A DNA stretch of 64,000 nucleotides, taken from positions 992,001-1,056,000 of the forward strand of contig OY764216.1 in assembly GCA_963668315.1 (NCBI GenBank), read 5' to 3'. This DNA comes from Spirochaetia bacterium (lineage in GTDB: Bacteria; Spirochaetota; Spirochaetia; DSM-2461). Positions 30,375 to 40,786 of this stretch are shown piece by piece; position 1 is the stretch's first letter, and each line of letters starts with the position of its first letter. The notes beneath the pieces are model-generated. The model was not told the DNA's origin and made no database searches. It worked only from the letters and a program-made list of their open reading frames with translations. Position numbers and translations under genes: made by a program.

Positions 30375-31244
30375 CTACTCCTTGGGATGAATTCTTCCGG
30401 AAATCCTCAATAATTCCCACCGGCTTTTTATCTGAAGTTTGCGGAATATGTTATTGATATGCTTTTTCACCGTGGATTCGGAAATAAAGAGCCTTTCCGC
30501 AATAGAGGAATTCGTTTCGCCGGCCAGGATCATATTGATGACCTCCTCTTCCCGTGGGGAGACGGGGAGCCCCATCTTCATCAATGGTACGGGGGCTTTT
30601 TGCTCCCTCAGCCATAAGGTGACTATGGCGCCCGTGCAGATGGTAAAGAGGGGCGTGAAATCGACAAGCAGTAGGGTAAGATATATTCTCGTCTGGGGTA
30701 TCTCTTCCAGTAATTCGAGAATAATTCCCAGCAGGAAGAAGCCGGTGCAGAAAAGGAGCCTGCCTACGAGAATGCCGATGGACGGCATAAGCCGCAGGGA
30801 ACGGCCTGTCAGGTGAAGGTAGAGAACATGTCCGGCAAAATAGAGAAAAAAGGCGATTCGGATGAGGGAGGGGATAAGGGAATAAACGGCGAAGGGCAAA
30901 ATATAGGCCGTCAGAATCAGGCCTGTCCAGAGTGCCGTGAGCAAGGGAGTCATGCTGAATCTGCCGAGGGATTGGAGAAAGAAAAGAAGAAAAAGCAGGC
31001 CGAGCTCTTCCAGGGTATGGCTAACTATCCAGAGGGAAAGGGGATGGTTATTTGCTATAAAGGCCAGATTCTGAAGAAACCCGATAAGATCATGGCAGAG
31101 GAAGGATAGGTAGAATCCCATGAAAAAGGACATGTCCTTCCTATTGTGTGACTCCCTTGTCCTGATAAGAAGCATGAATATCAGAAATCCCAGGATGTAT
31201 AGAAGAAAGTAAAACATGGTCCTCAGGGCCTCAATATCGGTCAT
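30375..31244 (-). CDS. Membrane-bound LuxR-type HTH transcriptional regulator
   Basis: About 7 TM segments then SPREEEVI..ILAGETNSSIAERLFISESTVKKHINNIFRKL. Confidence 0.9.
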   Translation of the reverse strand: MTDIEALRTMFYFLLYILGFLIFMLLIRTRESHNRKDMSFFMGFYLSFLCHDLIGFLQNLAFIANNHPLSLWIVSHTLEELGLLFLLFFLQSLGRFSMTPLLTALWTGLILTAYILPFAVYSLIPSLIRIAFFLYFAGHVLYLHLTGRSLRLMPSIGILVGRLLFCTGFFLLGIILELLEEIPQTRIYLTLLLVDFTPLFTICTGAIVTLWLREQKAPVPLMKMGLPVSPREEEVINMILAGETNSSIAERLFISESTVKKHINNIFRKLQIKSRWELLRISGRIHPKE

Positions 31245-31264
31245 GGGTTTATTTTATCATGGGA

Positions 31265-31759
31265 TCAGGGAATCAGGAAGCCCAATAGGCGGGCGAGCTC
31301 CCTCAGCCTCCTGTCCGGCGTGAGAAAGCCGTCGAAGCCCAGATGTCGGGCCGTGGCCAGATGGAGAAGTTCCCGCAGGTTCCAGCTCCGGGCATAGACC
31401 GCCGTGAGCGTGTATTCTCTGGTCAGGGACATCACCGCTTCCCAGTCGCAATCGATACTCACCAGTTTGCCCCGGATTTTGTCCTTATGAATCTGCAGAC
31501 GGACACCTTCCAGTTCCTCCCGGCTTATCTCGTCCAGGCCGTGCCTTTGGGCCAGCTCGTTCTGAAGATCCGTTTCCTGAAGTGTGGTCATGAGAATCGG
31601 CAGTTTTCTATCCACCGTCAGGTTGATGATGGACATGCTGTCCACCTGGGGCAGGTAGAGTTTTTCCAGGGCGTCCGGATGGTAGTAAAGCTTGCGCGAT
31701 GTCCGAAGGGAATACTCGTCATCCTCCTGCCGCGGATGCCCGGATGCTTTAGAAGTCAT
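31265..31759 (-). CDS. PIN/VapC-like protein with degenerate active-site motifs
   Basis: ALEKLY..., LLHLATA..LG...FLTPDRRL..LA..LG follow the VapC pattern; directly downstream of a Phd-type gene. Confidence 0.65.
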   Translation of the reverse strand: MTSKASGHPRQEDDEYSLRTSRKLYYHPDALEKLYLPQVDSMSIINLTVDRKLPILMTTLQETDLQNELAQRHGLDEISREELEGVRLQIHKDKIRGKLVSIDCDWEAVMSLTREYTLTAVYARSWNLRELLHLATARHLGFDGFLTPDRRLRELARLLGFLIP

Positions 31760-31994
31760 ACCGGGTCTCGCTGATGATGCCGGGATTCTCCTGGGGGCGC
31801 AGGGTTCTGCCCCGGAAGATTGTCATGATCTCCTTCTCGTGGTTCTCCCAGTTCACTTCCGGCGGCGTATCCAGGGGAAGAAGCCGCGCCACGGGGGTTT
31901 TCCGGCGGCAGATGAGGATTTCCTGACCGGATGTAACTTTTTGGATTACCGCGGCAAGATTGTGTTGAATTTCGCGAATACTGATTCTCTGCAT
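31749..31994 (-). CDS. Phd/YefM-family antitoxin
   Basis: ISIREIQHNLAAVIQKV..GQEILI.RRKTPVARLLP. Confidence 0.85.
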   Translation of the reverse strand: MQRISIREIQHNLAAVIQKVTSGQEILICRRKTPVARLLPLDTPPEVNWENHEKEIMTIFRGRTLRPQENPGIISETRYDF

Positions 31995-32185
31995 AGATAC
32001 CTATTAAGCCTTTCTTATGCCCTTTTTCGGGTAGAAGAAGGGAGAAATAATGTCTAACAAAACGTATGACAAAATTCGGCGATTGTCAAGAAAATCGGCG
32101 AATTAGCCCTCTCGAAAGGATTTGCTAACATATCTCTAACAGATTTTCCTTGATGAATCGGAAAAACTACCCTAATATCCAGTCT

Positions 32186-33067
32186 ATGGATCATTTGGAT
32201 GAATTAGAAAGTCTGAGCATACATCTGCTCAGAGAGGCATACGCCAACTTCAACAATCTATGCATGCTTTGGTCGATTGGAAAGGACTCCACCGTGCTTC
32301 TGTGGCTGGCCAGGAAAGCTTTCTACGGCCACGTTCCTTTTCCTCTGGTGCATATCGATACGTCATACAAAATCCCCGAGATGATTGAATACCGGGACCG
32401 TCTGGCGGCGGAATGGAAGCTCCCCATGGTTTACGGGGAGAATAAGGATGTCCTTGAGAGGGGAGACACTTTTCCCAACGGCAAGGTAGACCGTCTGACC
32501 TGCTGCGCCACCCTCAAGGCGGAAGCTCTGAAAAATACCCTGTCCGGCGACTGGACGCGCTACCGCTTCAACCACCGCAAGGGAAGCTACGAAGTGGACA
32601 GCGATACGGAGATGTACACCGGCGTCATTGTGGGTGTGCGGGCCGACGAAGAGGGCTCCCGTTCCAAGGAGCGCTATTTCTCTCCCCGTGATAAGGAGAA
32701 CAGCTGGGACGTGGGTGATCAGCCCCCGGAATTCTGGAATCAGTATAAAACCGACTTCGCTCCCGGCACCCATGTGCGCATCCATCCTCTTCTGGACTGG
32801 ACGGAGCTGAATATCTGGGAATATATCGAAAGGGAAAATATCCCCACCGTTTCCCTCTATTACAATCAGGGCGACGGGATAAGATACCGCTCCCTGGGCT
32901 GTATGCCCTGTACCAATCCGGTTGAGTCCGATGCCCGCAACGTCCGGGAGATCATCGATGAGCTGAAGACGGGTAAATTCGCCAATATCGCCGAGAGATC
33001 CGGACGGGCTCAGGATCAGGAAGACGGCGGCGGACTGGAAACTTTGAGACGGGACGGGTACATGTAA
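32186..33067 (+). CDS. cysD: Sulfate adenylyltransferase subunit 2
   Basis: [40 protein letters not shown], ends RRDGYM. Confidence 0.95.
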
Positions 33068-34884
33068 TGAGCAGCGCCATGAAAGAACAGATGAATATTG
33101 TAATTACCGGTCACGTGGATCACGGGAAAAGTACGGTAATCGGACGCATGCTGGCCGACACGGACAGCCTGCCCGAGGGCAAGCTGGAATCGGTCAAGAG
33201 AAACTGCGAACGCAACTCAAAACCCTTCGAATACGCCTTTCTCCTGGATGCTCTCAAAGACGAGCAGGCCCAGGGTATCACCATTGACGCCGCCCGGGTT
33301 TTCTTTAATACGGAAAAGCGGGACTACATTATCCTCGATGCTCCGGGACATATCGAGTTCCTGAAGAACATGGTTACCGGAGCGGCCAGGGCCGAAGCGG
33401 CCTTTCTGGTCATAGATGCGGACGAGGGAATTCAGGAGAACTCCCGCCGCCACGGTTACCTTCTGTCCATGCTGGGGATCCGGCAGCTGTGCGTTATCGT
33501 AAATAAAATGGACCTGGCCGACTACTCCCAGCGGGTTTACAAGCAGATTGAGCGGAAGTACACCCGCTTTCTGAAGAACCTGGATATGACCGATGTCTCT
33601 TTTATTCCCGTCAGCGGCAGGGAAGGGGATAATATCGCCTCCCTGAGCGAGAATATGCCCTGGTGGACAGGAGATACGGTTCTCTCCCTTCTGGATAAGT
33701 TCAAGAAAGAGGAAAAGCCTACCAGGCTGCCTTTCCGTATGTCCGTTCAGGACGTGTATAAGTTCACCAACGAGGGAGACAACCGTCGCATCATTGCGGG
33801 AACCATCGATTCCGGTGTACTGAACAGGGGGGACGAGCTTATTTTCTACCCTTCGGGAAAGAAAAGCCGGGTGGATTCCATCGAAGTTTTCAACGGAGAT
33901 CCCCTGGAGTCGGCCGAACCCGGCATGGCCACGGGTTTTACCATGACCGAACAGATTTACGCCAAGCGGGGTAACCTTGTCGCCAAGGTGGGGGAAAAAC
34001 AGCCCCAGGTGGGCAATGTTTTTCGTGTCAGCCTTTTCTGGCTGGGGAAAAAGCCCCTGGAAAAGGGTAAGGAGTACATCCTCAAGGTGGGAACGGACCG
34101 GGTCAAAATGCAGCTTTTCGATACGATTCGGGTCATAGATGCTTCCAATTTGAATACGGACAGCATGAAGAAGATCGTCGGGCGCCATGATGTGGCCGAA
34201 TGTGTGTTCACCACCAACCGGGCCATCGCCTTTGATCTGGTGGAGGACCTGCCCAGCGCCAGCCGTTTTGTCATCGTTGACGATTATGAAATAGCCGGCG
34301 GCGGAATCATCCGCGAGGTGGTGAAGGACAGTATGGCCGGACACCGGCAGGATTCCATTCACCGCAATTTCAGCTGGGAAACGGGCAATATTTCCGTATC
34401 GGAAAGGGCCCGTGCCCTGGGACACAAATCCCAGCTTCTTCTGGTGACCGGCGAAGCCTCCGTGGGCAAGAGCGAACTGTCCAAAGCGCTGGAACGGCGT
34501 CTTTTTGACAGGGGCTGCCACGCCTTTTACCTGGGGATCGCCAGTTTCTTCGGAGAAGGGGACGATTCCGAATACGGGGACAGCCGACGGGGACGCCGCC
34601 TGGCCGCCCATGAGCGGGAAGAGATGATCCACCGCCTGGCTCTTATGGCGAAGATGTCCATGGAGGGAGGGGGAATTCTTATCGTTTCCTGTCCCGAGCT
34701 GACCGCCGAGGAGAGGGAGGTCGTAAGCATAGCCCTTGATCCCCACGGAATGAAGACTATCTGGCTCGGAAAGGAGATATCCACCGATCTGAAGCCGGAT
34801 TACCAGATTGCCAATCCTGCGGAAGCTGTTACGGAAGCGGAGAAGGTGGAGAAACTTTTACTTGATGAGGACATCATCCTCTGA
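33067..34884 (+). CDS. cysN: Sulfate adenylyltransferase subunit 1 fused to a divergent APS-kinase-like domain
   Basis: [25 protein letters not shown]-terminal P-loop [21 protein letters not shown] overlap with cysD. Confidence 0.92.
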
Positions 34885-34910
34885 TTCTACTTAATAAACA
34901 AGGAGCGCCT

Positions 34911-36191
34911 ATGGCCTTTGAAAAAACGAAATATACCGTTAAATGCCTTTCCTGCGGGAAAGAGATCAGCGATGCCGATTATCCTCTGGGATGCCCTTCC
35001 TGCGAGAAGCCGGGTTTTATCCGGGCGGAATATGATAAAAGGCAGATTGATTTCGGCGCGAGCGAAATGGGGCTTTACCGTTTCGCCGACTGGCTCCCGG
35101 TTAAACGGGCTCTGGCCGGTTCGGGTGCGCCGATAACCTATAAGAGCAAGGCCTTCGCCGAAGAACTGGGCCTTACGAACCTGTGGGTTACTTTTAACGG
35201 ATGGTGGCCCGAGAAGGGCGCCCATATGAAGACGGGCGCTTTCAAGGAGTGCGAAGCCTATTCGGTCTGCGGCCGTATGGGCGAGGATTTCAAGGATACC
35301 CTGGTCGTGGCTTCCGCCGGTAATACGGCCCGCGCCTTTGCCCGGGTCTGTTCGGAGAACAACATTCCCCTCATCCTCTGCGTTCCCGAGGATAATATTG
35401 ATGCCCTCTGGTTCGATAAGAAACTGAATGATTGCGTTAAAATGTACTGCACCGAATCGGGAAGCGACTATTTCGATGCCATCGCCCTTTCCAATAAGGT
35501 GTGCGCCCTGGAGGGATTTGTTCCCGAGGGGGGAGCCAAGAATATCGCCCGGCGGGACGGTATGGGCACCACCGTTCTGAGCGCTGCCGAAGCGATGGGA
35601 GCGATTCCGGAGTACTATTTCCAGGCCGTGGGAAGCGGCACCGGGGCCATCGCCGCCTGGGAGGCCATGCAGAGACTTCAGGCGGACGGACGATTCGGCT
35701 CCAATAAGATGAAGCTGATGGTTTCCCAGAATGTTCCCTTTCAGCCGATCTACGATTCCTGGAAACAGGGCGGCCGGGCTATGGTGGAACTGGACAGCGA
35801 TCTGGCCCGCGAGCAGGCCGAGGCCGTCATCGGGAAGGTCCTGACCAACAGAAAACCCCCTTACAGCCTGGCGGGCGGTCTGTACGACGCCCTCGTCGAT
35901 ACGGACGGGGACGTGCTGGTCGTTACCAATGAAGAGGCGTCCCAGGCGGGCGAGCTTTTCAAGGAGCTGGAAGGGAACGACCTTTCCCCTGCCGCATCCG
36001 TTGCGGCGGCTTCTCTGATTCAGGCTGCCGAGGCGGGACTGGTTCCCAAGGACGGCCGGATTATGTTAAATATTACGGGCGGTGGAATGGAAAGATTCAT
36101 GTCTGAGCATGACATGCATTTCCTGCAGCCGGTCCATGTTTTTTCCAAGGAGCCCTCTGAGGAAGAGGTCGCCCGGGAACTTTTGAAATAA
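34911..36191 (+). CDS. Cysteate synthase (threonine-synthase-like PLP enzyme; CapA-like)
   Basis: N-terminal CLSC/CPSC; FNGWWPEKGA.MKTGAFKECEA; VASAGNTARAF; EGGAKNIARRDGMGT; YFQAVGSGTGAIAAWEA; LNITGGG. Confidence 0.88.
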   Translation: MAFEKTKYTVKCLSCGKEISDADYPLGCPSCEKPGFIRAEYDKRQIDFGASEMGLYRFADWLPVKRALAGSGAPITYKSKAFAEELGLTNLWVTFNGWWPEKGAHMKTGAFKECEAYSVCGRMGEDFKDTLVVASAGNTARAFARVCSENNIPLILCVPEDNIDALWFDKKLNDCVKMYCTESGSDYFDAIALSNKVCALEGFVPEGGAKNIARRDGMGTTVLSAAEAMGAIPEYYFQAVGSGTGAIAAWEAMQRLQADGRFGSNKMKLMVSQNVPFQPIYDSWKQGGRAMVELDSDLAREQAEAVIGKVLTNRKPPYSLAGGLYDALVDTDGDVLVVTNEEASQAGELFKELEGNDLSPAASVAAASLIQAAEAGLVPKDGRIMLNITGGGMERFMSEHDMHFLQPVHVFSKEPSEEEVARELLK

Positions 36192-36199
36192 AGCGTTAA

Positions 36200-36281
36200 G
36201 GGGCAGGGATAGAAGCGGTTATGGCCCCCGGGGCCATTCGAGCGGATAGCCCGGTGCGCGCGGTTCGCGCGTCAGCCCCCC
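36200..36281 (-). repeat. REP-like intergenic palindromic element, copy A
   Basis: Minus strand CCGGGCTATCCGCTCGAA-[hairpin ATGGCCCC/GGGGCCAT]-AACCGCTTCTATCCCT; same conserved blocks at 60990-61078. Confidence 0.7.
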
Positions 36282-36321
36282 AACCTGAAAGAAATTGAAT
36301 ATCAACGATTAGGAGTTGAAA

Positions 36322-37620
36322 ATGGCAGATATTTTTGATAAATGCAAAGGCGACGGGGGCTACTTCGGTGCGTTCCGTCATATGGGTGAGAATGAACTGA
36401 CTCGGCCGATCATGGACCCCATTTCGGGCACGAAGATGATCCACAACGGGGAAGAGCATATCATGTGGTCGGTCAATAACTATATCGGCCTGGCCAACAA
36501 CGAGGAAGTCCGGGCGGCGGCTCTGAAGGCTGTTGAGGAATTTTCCACCAGCAACCCCATGGGCTCGAGAATGATGAGCGGCAACACTCCCTATCACCTG
36601 GCACTGGAGAAGAGATTTGCCGAGTTCGCCCAGAAAGAGGCGGCTTTCCTTTTCAACTTCGGTTACATGGCCGTTCTGGGAATCGTTTCCTCCCTGGCCG
36701 GTATGGGCGATACGGTTGTCGTCGATAAGCTGGCCCACGCCTGTATCCTCGACGCGGCGGGCATGGCCAAGGCGGCCGGCGCCAATCTGCGCTACTTCAA
36801 ACACAACGACGCCAAGGACCTGGACAAGGTTCTGGAGAGCGTTAACAAGACCAATCCCGACGGCGGCGTTCTTGTCCTGACCGAGGGTGTTTACGGAATG
36901 ACAGGAGACCTGGCGGACCTGAAAAGCATCTGCGAGGTGAAGGATAAGTGGGGCGCCCGTCTTTTTATCGATGATGCTCACGGTATCGGCGTTATGGGCG
37001 AGAACGGCCGCGGTGCGGCTGATTTCTTCGGCGTACAGGACAAGATTGATATCTACTTCGGTACTTTTGCCAAGGCCTTCGCTTCCATCGGCGGTTTCTG
37101 CGCCTGTGACAAGGACGTGCGTGACTGGATCATGTTCAACGCCCGCACCCAGGTTTTCGCCAAGTCCCTGCCCATGGTTTATGTAAAAGCCCTGGATAAG
37201 ACTCTGGATCTGGTCATCGAGAGACAGGATCTGAGAGACAAGATGTGGGAAAACTCCAAAAAGCTTCAGGACGGTCTGCGGAACGAAGGTTTCGCCATCG
37301 GACCGGGAGACTCTCCCATCTGTTCCGTTTTCTGCCCCGTGGGCACGGAGAAGGCCGATGACGCCGGCGGTGTCGGCGCCCGGATGGTTCAGTACCTGAG
37401 AGCCAAGAAAATTTTCGTTACCGCCGTCGTTTACCCCGTTATTCCTCCCGGACTGTGCATGTTCCGGATGATCCCCACCGCGGCTCACAACGATGAGGAA
37501 ATCCAGACGACGATCGGGATTTTCAGAGAGATGAAGAACGAGCTGAACCTGACTCTGCCCTGTACCCCCGAGGACCAGGCCAAGATCGATAAGCTCTACC
37601 GGTGTAATCCGGAAGCGTAA
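36322..37620 (+). CDS. PLP-dependent alpha-oxoamine synthase (SPT/BioF family), probable cysteate C-acyltransferase (CapB/SulA-like)
   Basis: WSVNNYIGLAN, GSRMMSG, AHACILD, FKHND, EGVYGM.GD, DDAHG, GTFAK (PLP Lys), FAKSLPM; directly after cysteate synthase. Confidence 0.8.
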   Translation: MADIFDKCKGDGGYFGAFRHMGENELTRPIMDPISGTKMIHNGEEHIMWSVNNYIGLANNEEVRAAALKAVEEFSTSNPMGSRMMSGNTPYHLALEKRFAEFAQKEAAFLFNFGYMAVLGIVSSLAGMGDTVVVDKLAHACILDAAGMAKAAGANLRYFKHNDAKDLDKVLESVNKTNPDGGVLVLTEGVYGMTGDLADLKSICEVKDKWGARLFIDDAHGIGVMGENGRGAADFFGVQDKIDIYFGTFAKAFASIGGFCACDKDVRDWIMFNARTQVFAKSLPMVYVKALDKTLDLVIERQDLRDKMWENSKKLQDGLRNEGFAIGPGDSPICSVFCPVGTEKADDAGGVGARMVQYLRAKKIFVTAVVYPVIPPGLCMFRMIPTAAHNDEEIQTTIGIFREMKNELNLTLPCTPEDQAKIDKLYRCNPEA

Positions 37621-37630
37621 AGGAAAGGGA

Positions 37631-37726
37631 GGGGGAGTTATATTGAAAACAGTATAATTCCTCCAGCTTACAGAGATGTGGCAACGTTAGGGGAATGAGT
37701 TAAATTGAAAACTATATAATTCCCCC
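37631..37726 (+). repeat. Two tandem copies of the TGAAAAC-loop hairpin element
   Basis: GGGGGAGTTATATTGAAAACAGTATAATTCCTCC (37631-37664) and GGGGAATGAGTTAAATTGAAAACTATATAATTCCCCC (37690-37726). Confidence 0.7.
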
Positions 37727-37744
37727 TTATTTTTAGATTTTATG

Positions 37745-37778
37745 ACCGCGGGAACTTACATGTCTTCGCGGTTTTTTT
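37745..37778 (+). terminator. Intrinsic terminator of the cys/cysteate operon
   Basis: ACCGCG-loop-CGCGGT followed by a T-run. Confidence 0.7.
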
Positions 37779-37828
37779 GTTTATAAAGAGTCCTTGGTCT
37801 ATAATTAGAATCAAAGGTAGGGAATAGG

Positions 37829-38740
37829 GTGACTTTGAATTATACCAAAGATTTGCTGTTACAGATTTTCGATGTCATCAGCGAAGGGGTGTACCTGTTA
37901 GATGAGTCTCGGACCATTGTATACTGGAACGGGAAAGCCGAAGAGATAACAGGATATACTTCGGAAGAAGTTCTGGGGCGAAAATGTTCCGACAATATTC
38001 TGAATCACATAGACGATTCCTGTCGGCAGTTATGCGGAGAAAATTGCCCGCTTAAGGAAGTGATGCAATCAGGCAAGAAGGACGCTGTTTCGGTTTTTCT
38101 TCATAATAAGGAAGGGTTCCGCGTTCCCGTTACGATTCATGCCATTCCCGTTAAGGATGAGACGGGAAAGGTGACAGGGGTACTGGAAGTTTTTTCCGAT
38201 ACATCCGAAATACGGCTGACACAGCGCAAGATAGATCTTCTCAATGAACAGCTTTATACGGATGCACTAACCAAGGTGGGGAACAGGCGCTTCTGCGACA
38301 GGGAACTGCGACGCATTTTTGAAGATTATGCCGCCTCCGGTGCTCCTTTCAGCGCCGCCCTCTGCGATATCGACAATTTCAAGAACATTAACGATACCTA
38401 CGGTCATGACTTCGGGGATAAAGTACTGGCCATGGTGGCGAAAACTCTTTTCAATACACTGCGGGACGGAGATGTGGTGAGCCGATGGGGTGGGGAGGAG
38501 TTTCTCCTTATCTTTTCCACGGTGCACGACAGGGACGAGCTCTTTGCCCTGGTGGAGAGAGTACGCATTCTGATCGGCGAATCTTTCCTTATCCATGATC
38601 AGGAAAAAATCAGCGTCACCGCCTCGTTCGGGGCGGCGGTAGTCAAAAAAGAGGATACGGAAGATACCCTTTTCAAGAGAATGGATACTCTGCTTTACCA
38701 AAGTAAAAAAGAGGGGAAAAACAGGGTTTCCGTGGAATAA
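37829..38740 (+). CDS. PAS-domain diguanylate cyclase
   Basis: PAS (IVYWN..AEEITGY..EEVLGR.C...CPL); TDALTKVGNRR; RDGD I-site; GGEEF. Confidence 0.92.
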   Translation: MTLNYTKDLLLQIFDVISEGVYLLDESRTIVYWNGKAEEITGYTSEEVLGRKCSDNILNHIDDSCRQLCGENCPLKEVMQSGKKDAVSVFLHNKEGFRVPVTIHAIPVKDETGKVTGVLEVFSDTSEIRLTQRKIDLLNEQLYTDALTKVGNRRFCDRELRRIFEDYAASGAPFSAALCDIDNFKNINDTYGHDFGDKVLAMVAKTLFNTLRDGDVVSRWGGEEFLLIFSTVHDRDELFALVERVRILIGESFLIHDQEKISVTASFGAAVVKKEDTEDTLFKRMDTLLYQSKKEGKNRVSVE

Positions 38741-38938
38741 GGCGGACAAGGGGGGAATCTTTTTTTATATGGCCTTATTTATTTCAATAAAATGGTTATA
38801 TTGTTATTTTACAGGCAAAAGAACAGTATGTATGTGTTAATTTATACAAATCCTACCGTCTATACTGAGAAAAAAGTAATTGTTATTCCATTAATACTAG
38901 TGTATAGATAGCTAATTTTCTTTTCTTGAGGAGTACTA

Positions 38939-40786
38939 ATGAAAAAACAATTAGTCTTATTTCTGGGATGCATATCCTTTGCATCACTTTTCTTCAGCTG
39001 CGGGAATCTGTTTGATAACGGTTCCTCCGATAAGGATACAACTGTTCCTGTCGGATATTCTGTCATAATTGATCAATCCGTGATAAATGCTTCGAACACA
39101 TCGGCTTTTTCCTTCACCCTTTCCAATGCAGAAATTGGTACGACCTGCTCGTATATTATTGATGATGAAGATTCTGCTACCTCTGCGGTAACAGGTTCAT
39201 CAGCTATTACTGCTACGGATCTAACGATTAGCGGAATAGATGTTTCCCCCCTAAGCGATGGTAACATCAGCCTTACTGTATCACTGACAGATGCAGCAGG
39301 AAATGTGGGAGAAAGCACCTCTATTCAGACTGTTGCAAAAGATACGGTGGCTCCTTCGGGATATTCTGCGGTTATAGGGCAGTCTATCATTAGTTCTGAT
39401 AATGCAACAGCTATGTCATTTGCTCTTTCTGGTGCAGAAGCGGGAGCGACATGTAACTATACGATTAATGATGAAAACTCTGCTAACTCTGCTGTTACAG
39501 GAACAGTAGCTGTTTCCGCTTTGGCACAGAATGTCAGTGGAATTGATGTTTCTTCACTGAGCGATGGAACTCTCTATCTTACAGTTTCTCTTACCGATGC
39601 GGCAGGAAATCAGGGTCTAGCTACTACAGAAGTTACCGTCTTGAAAGATACGATAGCTCCTGACAATCAGAATACTGTTATTTCTGCAGATGCCACTCTC
39701 TATAATGATGAAACATTAGCCATTGCGAGCTCCGGTGATGAGGATAATACTATATGGCTCGCTCCCTACGGTACAACCTCATTTATTGAGGGAGCGCAAA
39801 TGACTAAAGCTTCTGGAATCGCCACGTCAATTTCCGTACCGACTGCAGAAGGCACCTACTATATTTTCGTAATTGATGGGGCGGGTAATATTTCTCCTGA
39901 ATCTACCTATGAAGTCGTTGTCGAACTTAGGACCTATAGCTTTTCCAATGCTTCGGCTACGGGAAGACAGGGCCCTGATCAGAGTGCTGTCGATTCGGCG
40001 TATTTGGGAACGCTTCTTAATGGTGATGTTACGGTTACCGATACAGGTATCCAGAAGTGGACTGTACCGAAGACAGCCACCTATCGCATTACTGCTATGG
40101 GTGCTTCCGGAGCCAATGCCGGGAGCTATGGAAAGGGAGCAAAAATCGAAGGTGACTTTGAGCTGACTGCCGGTGATATTCTTTGGATCCTTGTTGGCCA
40201 GCAGGGGGGGGGGCTCTATAAAGCTTATGCTCAGATGGGAGGAGGGGGAGGCTCTTTTGTCTCTACAGGAACCTCTCTCCCTGATAGCTCTCTCCTTATG
40301 GCTGCTGGTGGTGGTGGTGCCGCTGGAGCTAATGCTAACGCTAAATGCAACGGCCAGGCGTCTACCGCTGGAAGCTCCGGCTATGATCATGATGACATCA
40401 GCAATAATGACGGCGGTGCCGATGGAACTGCCGGTGATACCGGGGCAAATGCCGGGATGGATGCTGCTGCAGGTATTTTGAAAGAGTTCTCTCTCTCCAC
40501 GGAAGCCCAAAGTTTCTTCGACGGAGGTCTTGGCTCCGAGGTTACTGATAGCTCGGCTAATAATGGCGATGGAGGCTTTGGTGGTGGCGGAGCCAGAATA
40601 AGCGGAACCGGTTATGCTACCTCTGGCGGGGGCGGCGGATACTCCGGCGGTGGAGCTTCAGACGATATTAACGGAATGCCCTTCTATGGCGGAGGCGGCG
40701 GCTCCTACAACACAGGAACCAACCAGTCTAACACGGCCGGAGGAGCTGATCTGGGACACGGATCGGTAACAATAATTCAGTTATAG
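38939..40786 (+). CDS. Surface lipoprotein with tandem Ig-like repeats and C-terminal glycine-rich (ALK/LTK-GRD-like) domain
   Basis: Lipobox FFSC; two ~100-aa repeats ending LTVSLTDAAGN; IQKWTVP.TATYRI.A.GA.G...G.GA.I.G.F.L..GD.L.ILVGQQG followed by poly-Gly runs. Confidence 0.8.
   Translation: MKKQLVLFLGCISFASLFFSCGNLFDNGSSDKDTTVPVGYSVIIDQSVINASNTSAFSFTLSNAEIGTTCSYIIDDEDSATSAVTGSSAITATDLTISGIDVSPLSDGNISLTVSLTDAAGNVGESTSIQTVAKDTVAPSGYSAVIGQSIISSDNATAMSFALSGAEAGATCNYTINDENSANSAVTGTVAVSALAQNVSGIDVSSLSDGTLYLTVSLTDAAGNQGLATTEVTVLKDTIAPDNQNTVISADATLYNDETLAIASSGDEDNTIWLAPYGTTSFIEGAQMTKASGIATSISVPTAEGTYYIFVIDGAGNISPESTYEVVVELRTYSFSNASATGRQGPDQSAVDSAYLGTLLNGDVTVTDTGIQKWTVPKTATYRITAMGASGANAGSYGKGAKIEGDFELTAGDILWILVGQQGGGLYKAYAQMGGGGGSFVSTGTSLPDSSLLMAAGGGGAAGANANAKCNGQASTAGSSGYDHDDISNNDGGADGTAGDTGANAGMDAAAGILKEFSLSTEAQSFFDGGLGSEVTDSSANNGDGGFGGGGARISGTGYATSGGGGGYSGGGASDDINGMPFYGGGGGSYNTGTNQSNTAGGADLGHGSVTIIQL

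Follow-up and report, generated by a model that had tools for sequence, protein, structure and literature searches.

A predicted capnine-type sulfonolipid operon in a spirochaete genome and a co-inherited VOC protein as a candidate for its later steps

A stretch of 64,000 nucleotides from a Spirochaetia bacterium (contig OY764216.1, assembly GCA_963668315.1), hereafter the window, carries at positions 32,186 to 37,778 a group of genes for which an initial annotation had proposed a role in sulfonolipid (capnine) biosynthesis. Four genes, cysD, cysN, a cysteate synthase gene and an alpha-oxoamine synthase (AOS) gene, follow one another head to tail on the plus strand, and a terminator-like hairpin lies behind them. 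The features of the locus are listed below, with adenosine 5'-phosphosulfate given as APS, pyridoxal 5'-phosphate as PLP, cysteate C-acyltransferase as CFAT and serine palmitoyltransferase as SPT.

32186..33067, plus strand: cysD, sulfate adenylyltransferase small subunit, 293 aa (NF003587, 352.5 bits, cut-off 195)
33067..34884, plus strand: cysN, 605 aa, ending in an APS-kinase-like domain that is degenerate (TIGR02034, 340.7 bits, cut-off 336.1)
34911..36191, plus strand: predicted cysteate synthase of the threonine-synthase-like archaeal/Alistipes type, a PLP enzyme of 426 aa (TIGR03844, PDB 9K3C)
36192..36321, no strand: spacer of 130 bases with a GC-rich palindromic element (fold z -0.82)
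36322..37620, plus strand: AOS of 432 aa, predicted CFAT (CFAT/SulA/CapB-like; PDB matches, pocket residues, trees)
37072..37074, plus strand: codon of the PLP lysine K251 of the AOS (alignment)
37162..37164, plus strand: codon of Lys281, the residue that marks SulA and where SPT-like relatives have Ala (alignment)
37623..37735, no strand: long imperfect palindrome (z -3.81), built from a short dispersed repeat present twice
37744..37778, plus strand: intrinsic-terminator-like hairpin with a U tract (folding against shuffles)

The start of cysN overlaps the stop of cysD, both at 33067. The arrangement described in the initial annotation, with the four genes on one strand and ending at one terminator, was borne out by the family matches and by the hairpin at 37744-37778 (-14 kcal/mol, z -3.84, a stability reached by none of 200 shuffled versions), which is absent from the output of a consensus terminator scan. 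Judged by its sequence, the locus is a real, conserved predicted operon. The palindromic element of the spacer has three partial copies elsewhere in the genome and does not fold above chance; an Rfam search of positions 31000-39000 gave no match, and a promoter scan returned 5 sites against 4.5 expected. The host genome (G000) is a single closed contig of 5.62 Mb, 97% complete, with three matches to FlaA (PF04620) as compared with 0 of 14 controls. The closest named relatives of the AOS come from Spirochaetales, Oceanispirochaeta and Alkalispirochaeta, and sequence P0016, named for an unclassified Oceanispirochaeta, is 69% identical to it. Thus, the contig, whose origin the initial annotation wished to see confirmed, belongs to a spirochaete and not to a member of Bacteroidota.

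The condensing enzyme encoded at 36322-37620 finds its best PDB matches in the two solved CFATs, 28EH (CoCFAT, E 7.5e-96) and 7U7H (SulA, E 1.1e-91), the best SPT following at E 2.8e-62. It falls below every NCBIfam cut-off, whether for SPT (308/500, 277/640 and 236/670 bits), Kbl (286/460) or BioF (286/426), and its identification as SPT, Kbl or BioF was rejected, as no family cut-off is reached and the signature residues differ. The FAKS lysine, counted in the initial annotation as residue 281 from ATG 36322, aligns with the FAKS lysine of both 28EH and 7U7H, in agreement with that count, and the SPT 3A2B has FSAS at this place. The function ascribed to this residue, sulfonate specificity, survived in part: Lys281 has been put forward as a marker of sulfonolipid enzymes, but the K281A variant of SulA retains cysteate binding and its authors assign the lysine a structural role; they connect the space available to the sulfonate with small Ala side chains (PMC9304779). 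The pocket described for CoCFAT consists of N52, G81, A82, F113-G114-Y115, H139, C141, E187, F245, T247, A249, K250, M277, F278 and K280 (PMC13692747). Among 109 distinct oxoamine synthases from the collected loci, scored at 18 CoCFAT pocket and PLP positions, the marker lysine is present in 100/100 CFAT-like rows and in 0/9 SPT/Kbl/BioF-like rows. The window enzyme keeps 16 of the 18 positions; it has Val for Met277, a site which is variable among Bacteroidota rows, and Ser at position 82. As far as sequence tells, the condensing enzyme has the features of a CFAT, with one SPT-like pocket residue.

Its phylogenetic placement, for which the initial annotation had looked to SulA/CapB, agrees with this. 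Two trees were made, a quick one with 73 of the 109 AOS rows and a careful one with 33 rows, in which Capnocytophaga sp. and Rikenellaceae loci stand in for the assayed CFATs. The window AOS lies inside the CFAT clade (support 100/99), apart from SPT, Kbl and BioF; it stands outside the Bacteroidota CFAT clade (100/99) and groups with rows from Spirochaetota, Marinimicrobia and Clostridia (100/100). A recent transfer from Bacteroidales was considered and rejected, with p-AU 6e-43 (approximately unbiased test) for a constraint joining the window and locus L023 to three Bacteroidales rows, a group chosen after the quick tree was seen. As the trees do not settle the deepest branchings of the CFAT clade, they are not taken to give a direction of transfer.

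The predicted cysteate synthase scores 493.9 bits against TIGR03844 (cut-off 324.9) and matches PDB 9K3C over its full length (E 1.3e-159). The initial annotation was right to call this protein a cysteate synthase and mistaken in equating it with CapA: the enzyme is threonine-synthase-like, and the CapA family NF053679 is not among the six families that it matches, the other five being threonine synthases. An archaeal-type, threonine-synthase-like cysteate synthase, distinct from the CapA that is related to cystathionine beta-synthase and serves most Bacteroidota, has been assigned to Alistipes and Odoribacter (PMC10191378). TIGR03844 was found in 1 of 121 Bacteroidota-phylum genomes; this genome (G176, locus L162) has the synthase and no CFAT match at E<=1e-95.

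Synthase and CFAT are held together in genomes and often in loci. The synthase gene stands immediately upstream of the AOS gene in 17/20 loci of relatives (the window's own counted; two of the three misses lie at a contig edge), in 15/29 other non-Bacteroidota loci and in 0/51 loci of Bacteroidota and Chlorobi. In a sample of 251 Spirochaetota genomes, the AOS occurs in 20 and the synthase in the same 20 and in one fragmented bin, with neither in 230; among 61 relatives, 27 have both, 30 have neither and 4 are discordant, counts in which related genomes are not independent. The pair is present in several Spirochaetota families and missing from whole genera of the window's own family. In another Spirochaetota family (f38), cfat was found in 13/14 genomes and the synthase in 14/14, unlinked. 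Decay of the pathway was seen at L125 (G016:C72), where cfat and a further gene discussed below, encoding a vicinal oxygen chelate (VOC) protein, persist only as fragments and the cysteate synthase has no match, and at L106 (G046:C1), where the VOC gene is split, cfat sits on a long branch and the cysteate synthase is missing. A spirochaete with a reduced genome of 1.4 Mb, 96% complete (L105, G040:C9), keeps synthase, cfat and VOC together and has no cysDN within the 20 kb locus.

This joint gain and loss also bears on whether the cysteate might serve another end, such as coenzyme M, an osmolyte or taurine-like compounds, beside an AOS that is a bystander of the Kbl or BioF kind. A control match of TIGR03844 in Methanosarcina acetivorans speaks for it, as we take TIGR03844 to be the enzyme family of methanogen coenzyme M synthesis. 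We nevertheless consider this explanation extremely improbable, because the AOS lies in the CFAT clade and is gained and lost with the synthase, and because a true Kbl is encoded elsewhere in the genome. The coenzyme M route itself was rejected, as ComD has no match in this genome.

The window CysD is a divergent paralogue, 32% identical to the second CysD of the genome. CysN passes the TIGR02034 cut-off, as expected from the initial annotation, but the fused CysC domain suggested there proved to be degenerate: the C-terminal kinase domain reaches 417 of 715 bits with NF004035 and 44 of 163 bits with NF003013, the LDGD motif is gone, and the P-loop, kept here, is lost in 8/9 relatives. On account of this degeneration, the operon is expected to go no further than APS. 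A second, canonical cysQ-cysD-cysNC with an intact kinase, passing both NF004035 and NF003013, is located at G000:C1:791390-795100 (L101:11391-15100) in a surface-polysaccharide locus with an ABC exporter and glycosyltransferases, and likely supplies 3'-phosphoadenosine 5'-phosphosulfate (PAPS) for sulfated glycans.

An APS reductase, CysH, is encoded outside the operon at G000:C1:4794384-4795418 and has an extra N-terminal CxxC domain of ~110 residues. In relatives, cysH stands inside the cluster, after cfat (L023, L025, L108, L112, L115, L169, L170) or before the synthase (L168), and in the Clostridia loci L033, L035, L037 and L046 AprA-like and ferredoxin genes follow cfat and a gene for a short-chain dehydrogenase/reductase (SDR). 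The siroheme sulfite reductase family PF01077 had no match in this genome or in 5/5 operon-bearing relatives, with 11/14 controls positive. Given the degenerate kinase, the APS reductase (in-cluster in relatives) and the lack of any siroheme sulfite reductase match, cysteate is the likely destination of the sulfite. The simplest reading of these sequences would be a dedicated lipid feed from sulfate through APS and sulfite to cysteate. For phosphoserine, a candidate at G000:C1:3585713-3586789 exceeds the cut-off of a family model which we take to be SerC; nine dehydrogenase matches were obtained for SerA, none over its cut-off. The coupling of sulfate activation to cysteate and a cysteate acyltransferase, the core of the initial annotation, is supported by homology, pocket residues, tree and co-occurrence.

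Gene context revealed two further proteins, an SDR and a VOC protein, which are new with respect to the initial annotation, as it missed both. Across 40 loci, the commonest neighbours after the synthase are the VOC protein (19/40), cysDN (15/40) and SDRs (11/40); ApbE, metallophosphoesterase and TetR neighbours occur in only 2-4 of the 40. The ten SDRs encoded beside cfat or VOC genes all (10/10) have their best match in this genome in the SDR at G000:C1:756332-757123, which makes it the candidate 3-ketocapnine reductase. Known 3-ketocapnine reductases are diverse SDRs (PMC11211663).

The VOC protein has 350 aa in four VOC modules, and its gene lies at G000:C1:1718616-1719665 (GC content at third codon positions 0.64, similar to the 0.67-0.71 of the operon). 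Its presence agrees with that of cfat in 58/61 relatives, the three that disagree being bins of 71-80% completeness; cfat, synthase and VOC are all missing from one closed genome that belongs to a carrier genus, and G016 has both cfat and VOC as fragments. Among the 121 Bacteroidota-phylum genomes, all 23 VOC carriers have CFAT (23/23), VOC occurs in 0/78 CFAT-negative genomes, and it is absent from 20/43 CFAT carriers. In the 251-genome Spirochaetota sample, VOC was present in 17/20 CFAT carriers (8 close, 9 distant homologues) and in one other bin. As this distribution indicates, VOC is CFAT-dependent but not universal. Most genomes of family f38 carry a distant VOC paralogue (~30%) which aligns only to residue 319.

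The predicted VOC model (pLDDT 94.8) was matched by Foldseek to glyoxalase I (maize, 5D7Z/6BNN) and GLOD4 (3ZI1) at E 4e-14 and TM 0.52-0.59, with ~15% sequence identity; a sequence search of PDB gave no match below E 0.29, and the ESM Atlas search returned only unnamed VOC clusters. Gln10, Glu71, His259 and Glu310, at least 90% conserved in 28 rows, resemble what we take to be the metal ligands of glyoxalase I. The last 35 residues hold 11 Lys/Arg as against 2 acids, together with hydrophobic residues, and this basic hydrophobic C-terminus suggests contact with a membrane or an acyl carrier.

The N-acylation step was approached through a Pfam GNAT gene which in the flavobacterial locus L161 is two genes away from cfat and in the spirochaete locus L131 has SPT-like and CerR-like genes for neighbours. 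From this context, it presumably belongs to the bacterial ceramide synthase (bCerS) family; it had no PDB match. The bCerS-like GNAT had no match in this genome, nor in 15/30 CFAT-bearing relatives. With close homologues defined at E<=1e-65, a threshold set after the data were seen and with a flavobacterial query that biases the count, they occur in 12/20 Bacteroidota-phylum CFAT carriers without VOC as compared with 2/23 with VOC; G168, the sole VOC-less member of a 17-genome group, has the GNAT at 49%. At E<=1e-15 a homologue is present in 108/121 Bacteroidota-phylum genomes, and 8/20 of the VOC-less CFAT carriers have neither VOC nor a close GNAT. In spirochaetes, close homologues were found in 4/30 CFAT carriers and 9/31 others.

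Owing to this partial complementarity, VOC is a candidate N-acyltransferase. We know of no acyltransferase of the VOC fold, which weighs against such a role, as does a PF01553 acyltransferase gene adjoining the VOC gene in 4/10 Bacteroidota VOC loci. These acyltransferases had no tblastn match in this genome, which holds 7 matches to PF01553. Among the functions that can be envisaged, an isomerase or tailoring activity is the one we favour, if tentatively; N-acylation is somewhat less likely, lipid binding is unlikely and repair of an aminoketone breakdown product is still more so. In its boldest form, the hypothesis would have VOC carry out the capnine N-acylation for which an enzyme is lacking, or a new step of like importance, as a membrane-bound, metal-dependent protein in place of the GNAT ceramide synthase; the complete pathway from sulfate to sulfonolipid would then be ancient and common among free-living Spirochaetota, Marinimicrobia and Clostridia, with the Bacteroidota enzymes as one of its branches. 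We hold this to be doubtful.

Taken together, our analysis argues that the operon probably makes 3-ketocapnine-type sulfonated long-chain bases, which the SDR and VOC would finish into a capnine-type lipid. CysDN would activate sulfate to APS, from which the APS reductase encoded outside the operon would release sulfite; cysteate synthase would then join sulfite to phosphoserine, yielding cysteate, which the Lys281 acyltransferase would condense with the thioester of a fatty acid, giving 3-ketocapnine. The separately encoded SDR, by 3-keto reduction, and VOC, by N-acylation, isomerisation, repair or lipid binding, would complete the lipid. Each of these reactions is presumed from known families, and the roles of SDR and VOC as well as the nature of the final lipid are read from gene context. 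In sum, the locus is a predicted operon that, by its sequence, would work like the Alistipes-type sulfonolipid pathway.

Several observations weigh against this reading. Position 82, the main sequence-level doubt about the CFAT assignment, is Ser, the SPT residue, in 43/47 rows of the window's branch and Ala in 53/53 other CFAT-like rows; identity to Bacteroidota CFATs is 39-46%, and every assayed CFAT comes from Bacteroidota (PMC13692747). The search for a CapC-like reductase, proposed in the initial annotation, produced a candidate by gene context that lies far below the KdsR cut-off (137/400 bits) and tracks the pathway loosely, in 22/30 carriers and 4/31 non-carriers at E<=1e-40. No N-acyltransferase for the pathway was identified in this genome. 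In one study, the intact polar lipids reported for Oceanispirochaeta M1 and M2 add up to 100% and include no capnine lipid (Table S46 of PMC11129491), and no formula with one N, one S and no P fits the unknown lipids of that table within 1.5 mmu.

Position 82 lends some weight to an explanation in which the Ser82 branch has a different specificity, for instance for serine or for an acyl donor of short chain length, and yields either a sphingoid base or some small sulfonated metabolite, as Ser82 is the SPT residue and the room for the sulfonate has been linked to small Ala side chains (PMC9304779). Two genomes labelled Aminicenantes/Eubacteriales, with a Lys-bearing AOS, no TIGR03844 match, and CerR-like and GNAT genes beside it, point the same way. 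However, the AOS is strictly paired with cysteate synthase in the 251 Spirochaetota genomes, Ala82 occurs, with the gene context unchanged, in four Clostridia of this branch, spirochaetes possess separate SPT-like genes with the full SPT signature, and SPT-like residue swaps did not confer serine activity on CoCFAT (PMC13692747); hence, we regard a changed specificity as quite improbable.

The lipid table bears on a further explanation, namely that the early steps run as proposed and that SDR and VOC turn 3-ketocapnine into something other than a normal, extractable N-acyl capnine: a free base, an isomerised product or an anchor of a larger envelope glycoconjugate. It accords with the fact that the table has no capnine lipids, with the lack of a bCerS-like GNAT homologue in this genome and in half of the CFAT-bearing relatives, with the isomerase-type fold shared by glyoxalase I, GLOD4 and the VOC model, and with the occurrence of the same genes in monoderm-type Clostridia. 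On the other side, the negative lipid result may stem from the strain, the culture medium or detection in positive mode, and the operon is known in the genus Oceanispirochaeta from the named loci L023 and L024, not from M1/M2 themselves. Moreover, VOC is no spirochaete speciality, since it occurs in 23/43 CFAT-bearing Bacteroidota-phylum genomes, and ordinary sulfonolipids are known for only some such lineages. We consider this explanation unlikely, though it is the foremost of the alternatives, and retain a capnine-type lipid as the probable product. The possibility that the 'unknown phospho-sugar lipids' in Table S46 are wrongly assigned sulfonolipids was rejected, because their masses agree with phospho-formulas to within 0.5 mmu. 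Capnine lipids of Labilibaculum are cited in that paper (PMC11129491), and Salinispira pacifica has an unidentified major aminolipid (PMC4511686), which is a lead only.

A number of related arrangements were noted in the course of the comparison. Other Spirochaetia (L126, L127, L129, L130, L131) carry an SPT-like AOS with the full SPT signature, and because the SPT-like gene of L131 adjoins GNAT and CerR-like genes, some spirochaetes may make ceramides. In the Aminicenantes-type loci L036, L039, L041, L043, L044 and L048, the genes behind the Lys-bearing AOS encode a membrane protein resembling Rce1 and a CerR-like epimerase, and a GNAT lies close by; one Aminicenantes-type genome that was searched had no match to VOC or TIGR03844. 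LeuA/leuB-like genes flank the operon in Oceanispirochaeta-type loci (L108, L112, L115, L023, L024), which also encode a 1110-aa fusion of 2-oxoacid dehydrogenase E1, lipoyl domain and FabH, and these genes could supply branched acyl primers. Upstream of cysD, at window positions 32040-32100, TGACAA/TGTCAA inverted arms are kept in L022 while the spacer differs, forming a possible operator; TetR genes flank the cluster in 4/40 loci. A divergent gene for 164 aa (31265-31759, minus strand), matching no Pfam or NCBIfam family, is kept upstream of the operon in L022.

According to a review of 2023, sulfonolipid synthesis appears limited to Bacteroidota (PMC10191378). Loose pathway homologues have been reported in 21 phyla, of which 42 Bacteroidota species and one Firmicute were kept (PMC11525784), and homologues in 13 phyla, with spirochaetes not named in the passages at hand (PMC11211663). 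Our literature search found no paper on spirochaete sulfonolipids, on this operon or on VOC in the pathway, and subscription papers and supplements may hold more. The operon alone would extend the known sulfonolipid pathway to a new phylum, as it occurs in several families of Spirochaetota and has relatives among Marinimicrobia and Clostridia. Capnine lipids are now read as Bacteroidota markers, and if the proposal is true, their sources in anoxic marine and digester habitats widen, and sulfate would be reduced to sulfite only for building a lipid. Most of all, the VOC partner merits work at the bench, as a testable candidate for a step that has no named enzyme in the passages of the sulfonolipid papers cited here.

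In comparison with known systems, the condensing enzyme resembles SulA of Alistipes finegoldii (7U7H) and CapB/CoCFAT of Capnocytophaga ochracea (28EH) as a fold-type I PLP-dependent AOS with PLP lysine 251 and Lys281, and differs from them in having Ser82 for Ala and Val277 for Met, in lying outside the Bacteroidota clade and in its operon with sulfate activation. The predicted synthase is like the archaeal-type cysteate synthase (9K3C) in exceeding the TIGR03844 cut-off, and unlike it in being coupled directly to cysDN and cfat. With the capABC capnine pathway of Capnocytophaga and Ornithobacterium the system shares a cysteate synthase, a cysteate C-acyltransferase and an SDR candidate (PMC10191378, PMC11211663, PMC13692747), whereas it belongs to another phylum, uses another synthase family, has a built-in supply from sulfate to sulfite and is accompanied by a co-inherited VOC that the passages of those papers do not mention for capABC. 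Like the Spt-bCerS-CerR ceramide pathway, it would start with an SPT-like condensation to a 3-keto long-chain base (PMC11087976); unlike that pathway, it occurs in a genome without a bCerS-like GNAT match, and in spirochaetes the GNAT goes with SPT-like genes and not with CFAT. Finally, the VOC protein has four modules in one chain, as do glyoxalase I and GLOD4, and is set apart from both by its basic hydrophobic C-terminal extension and its tie to CFAT.

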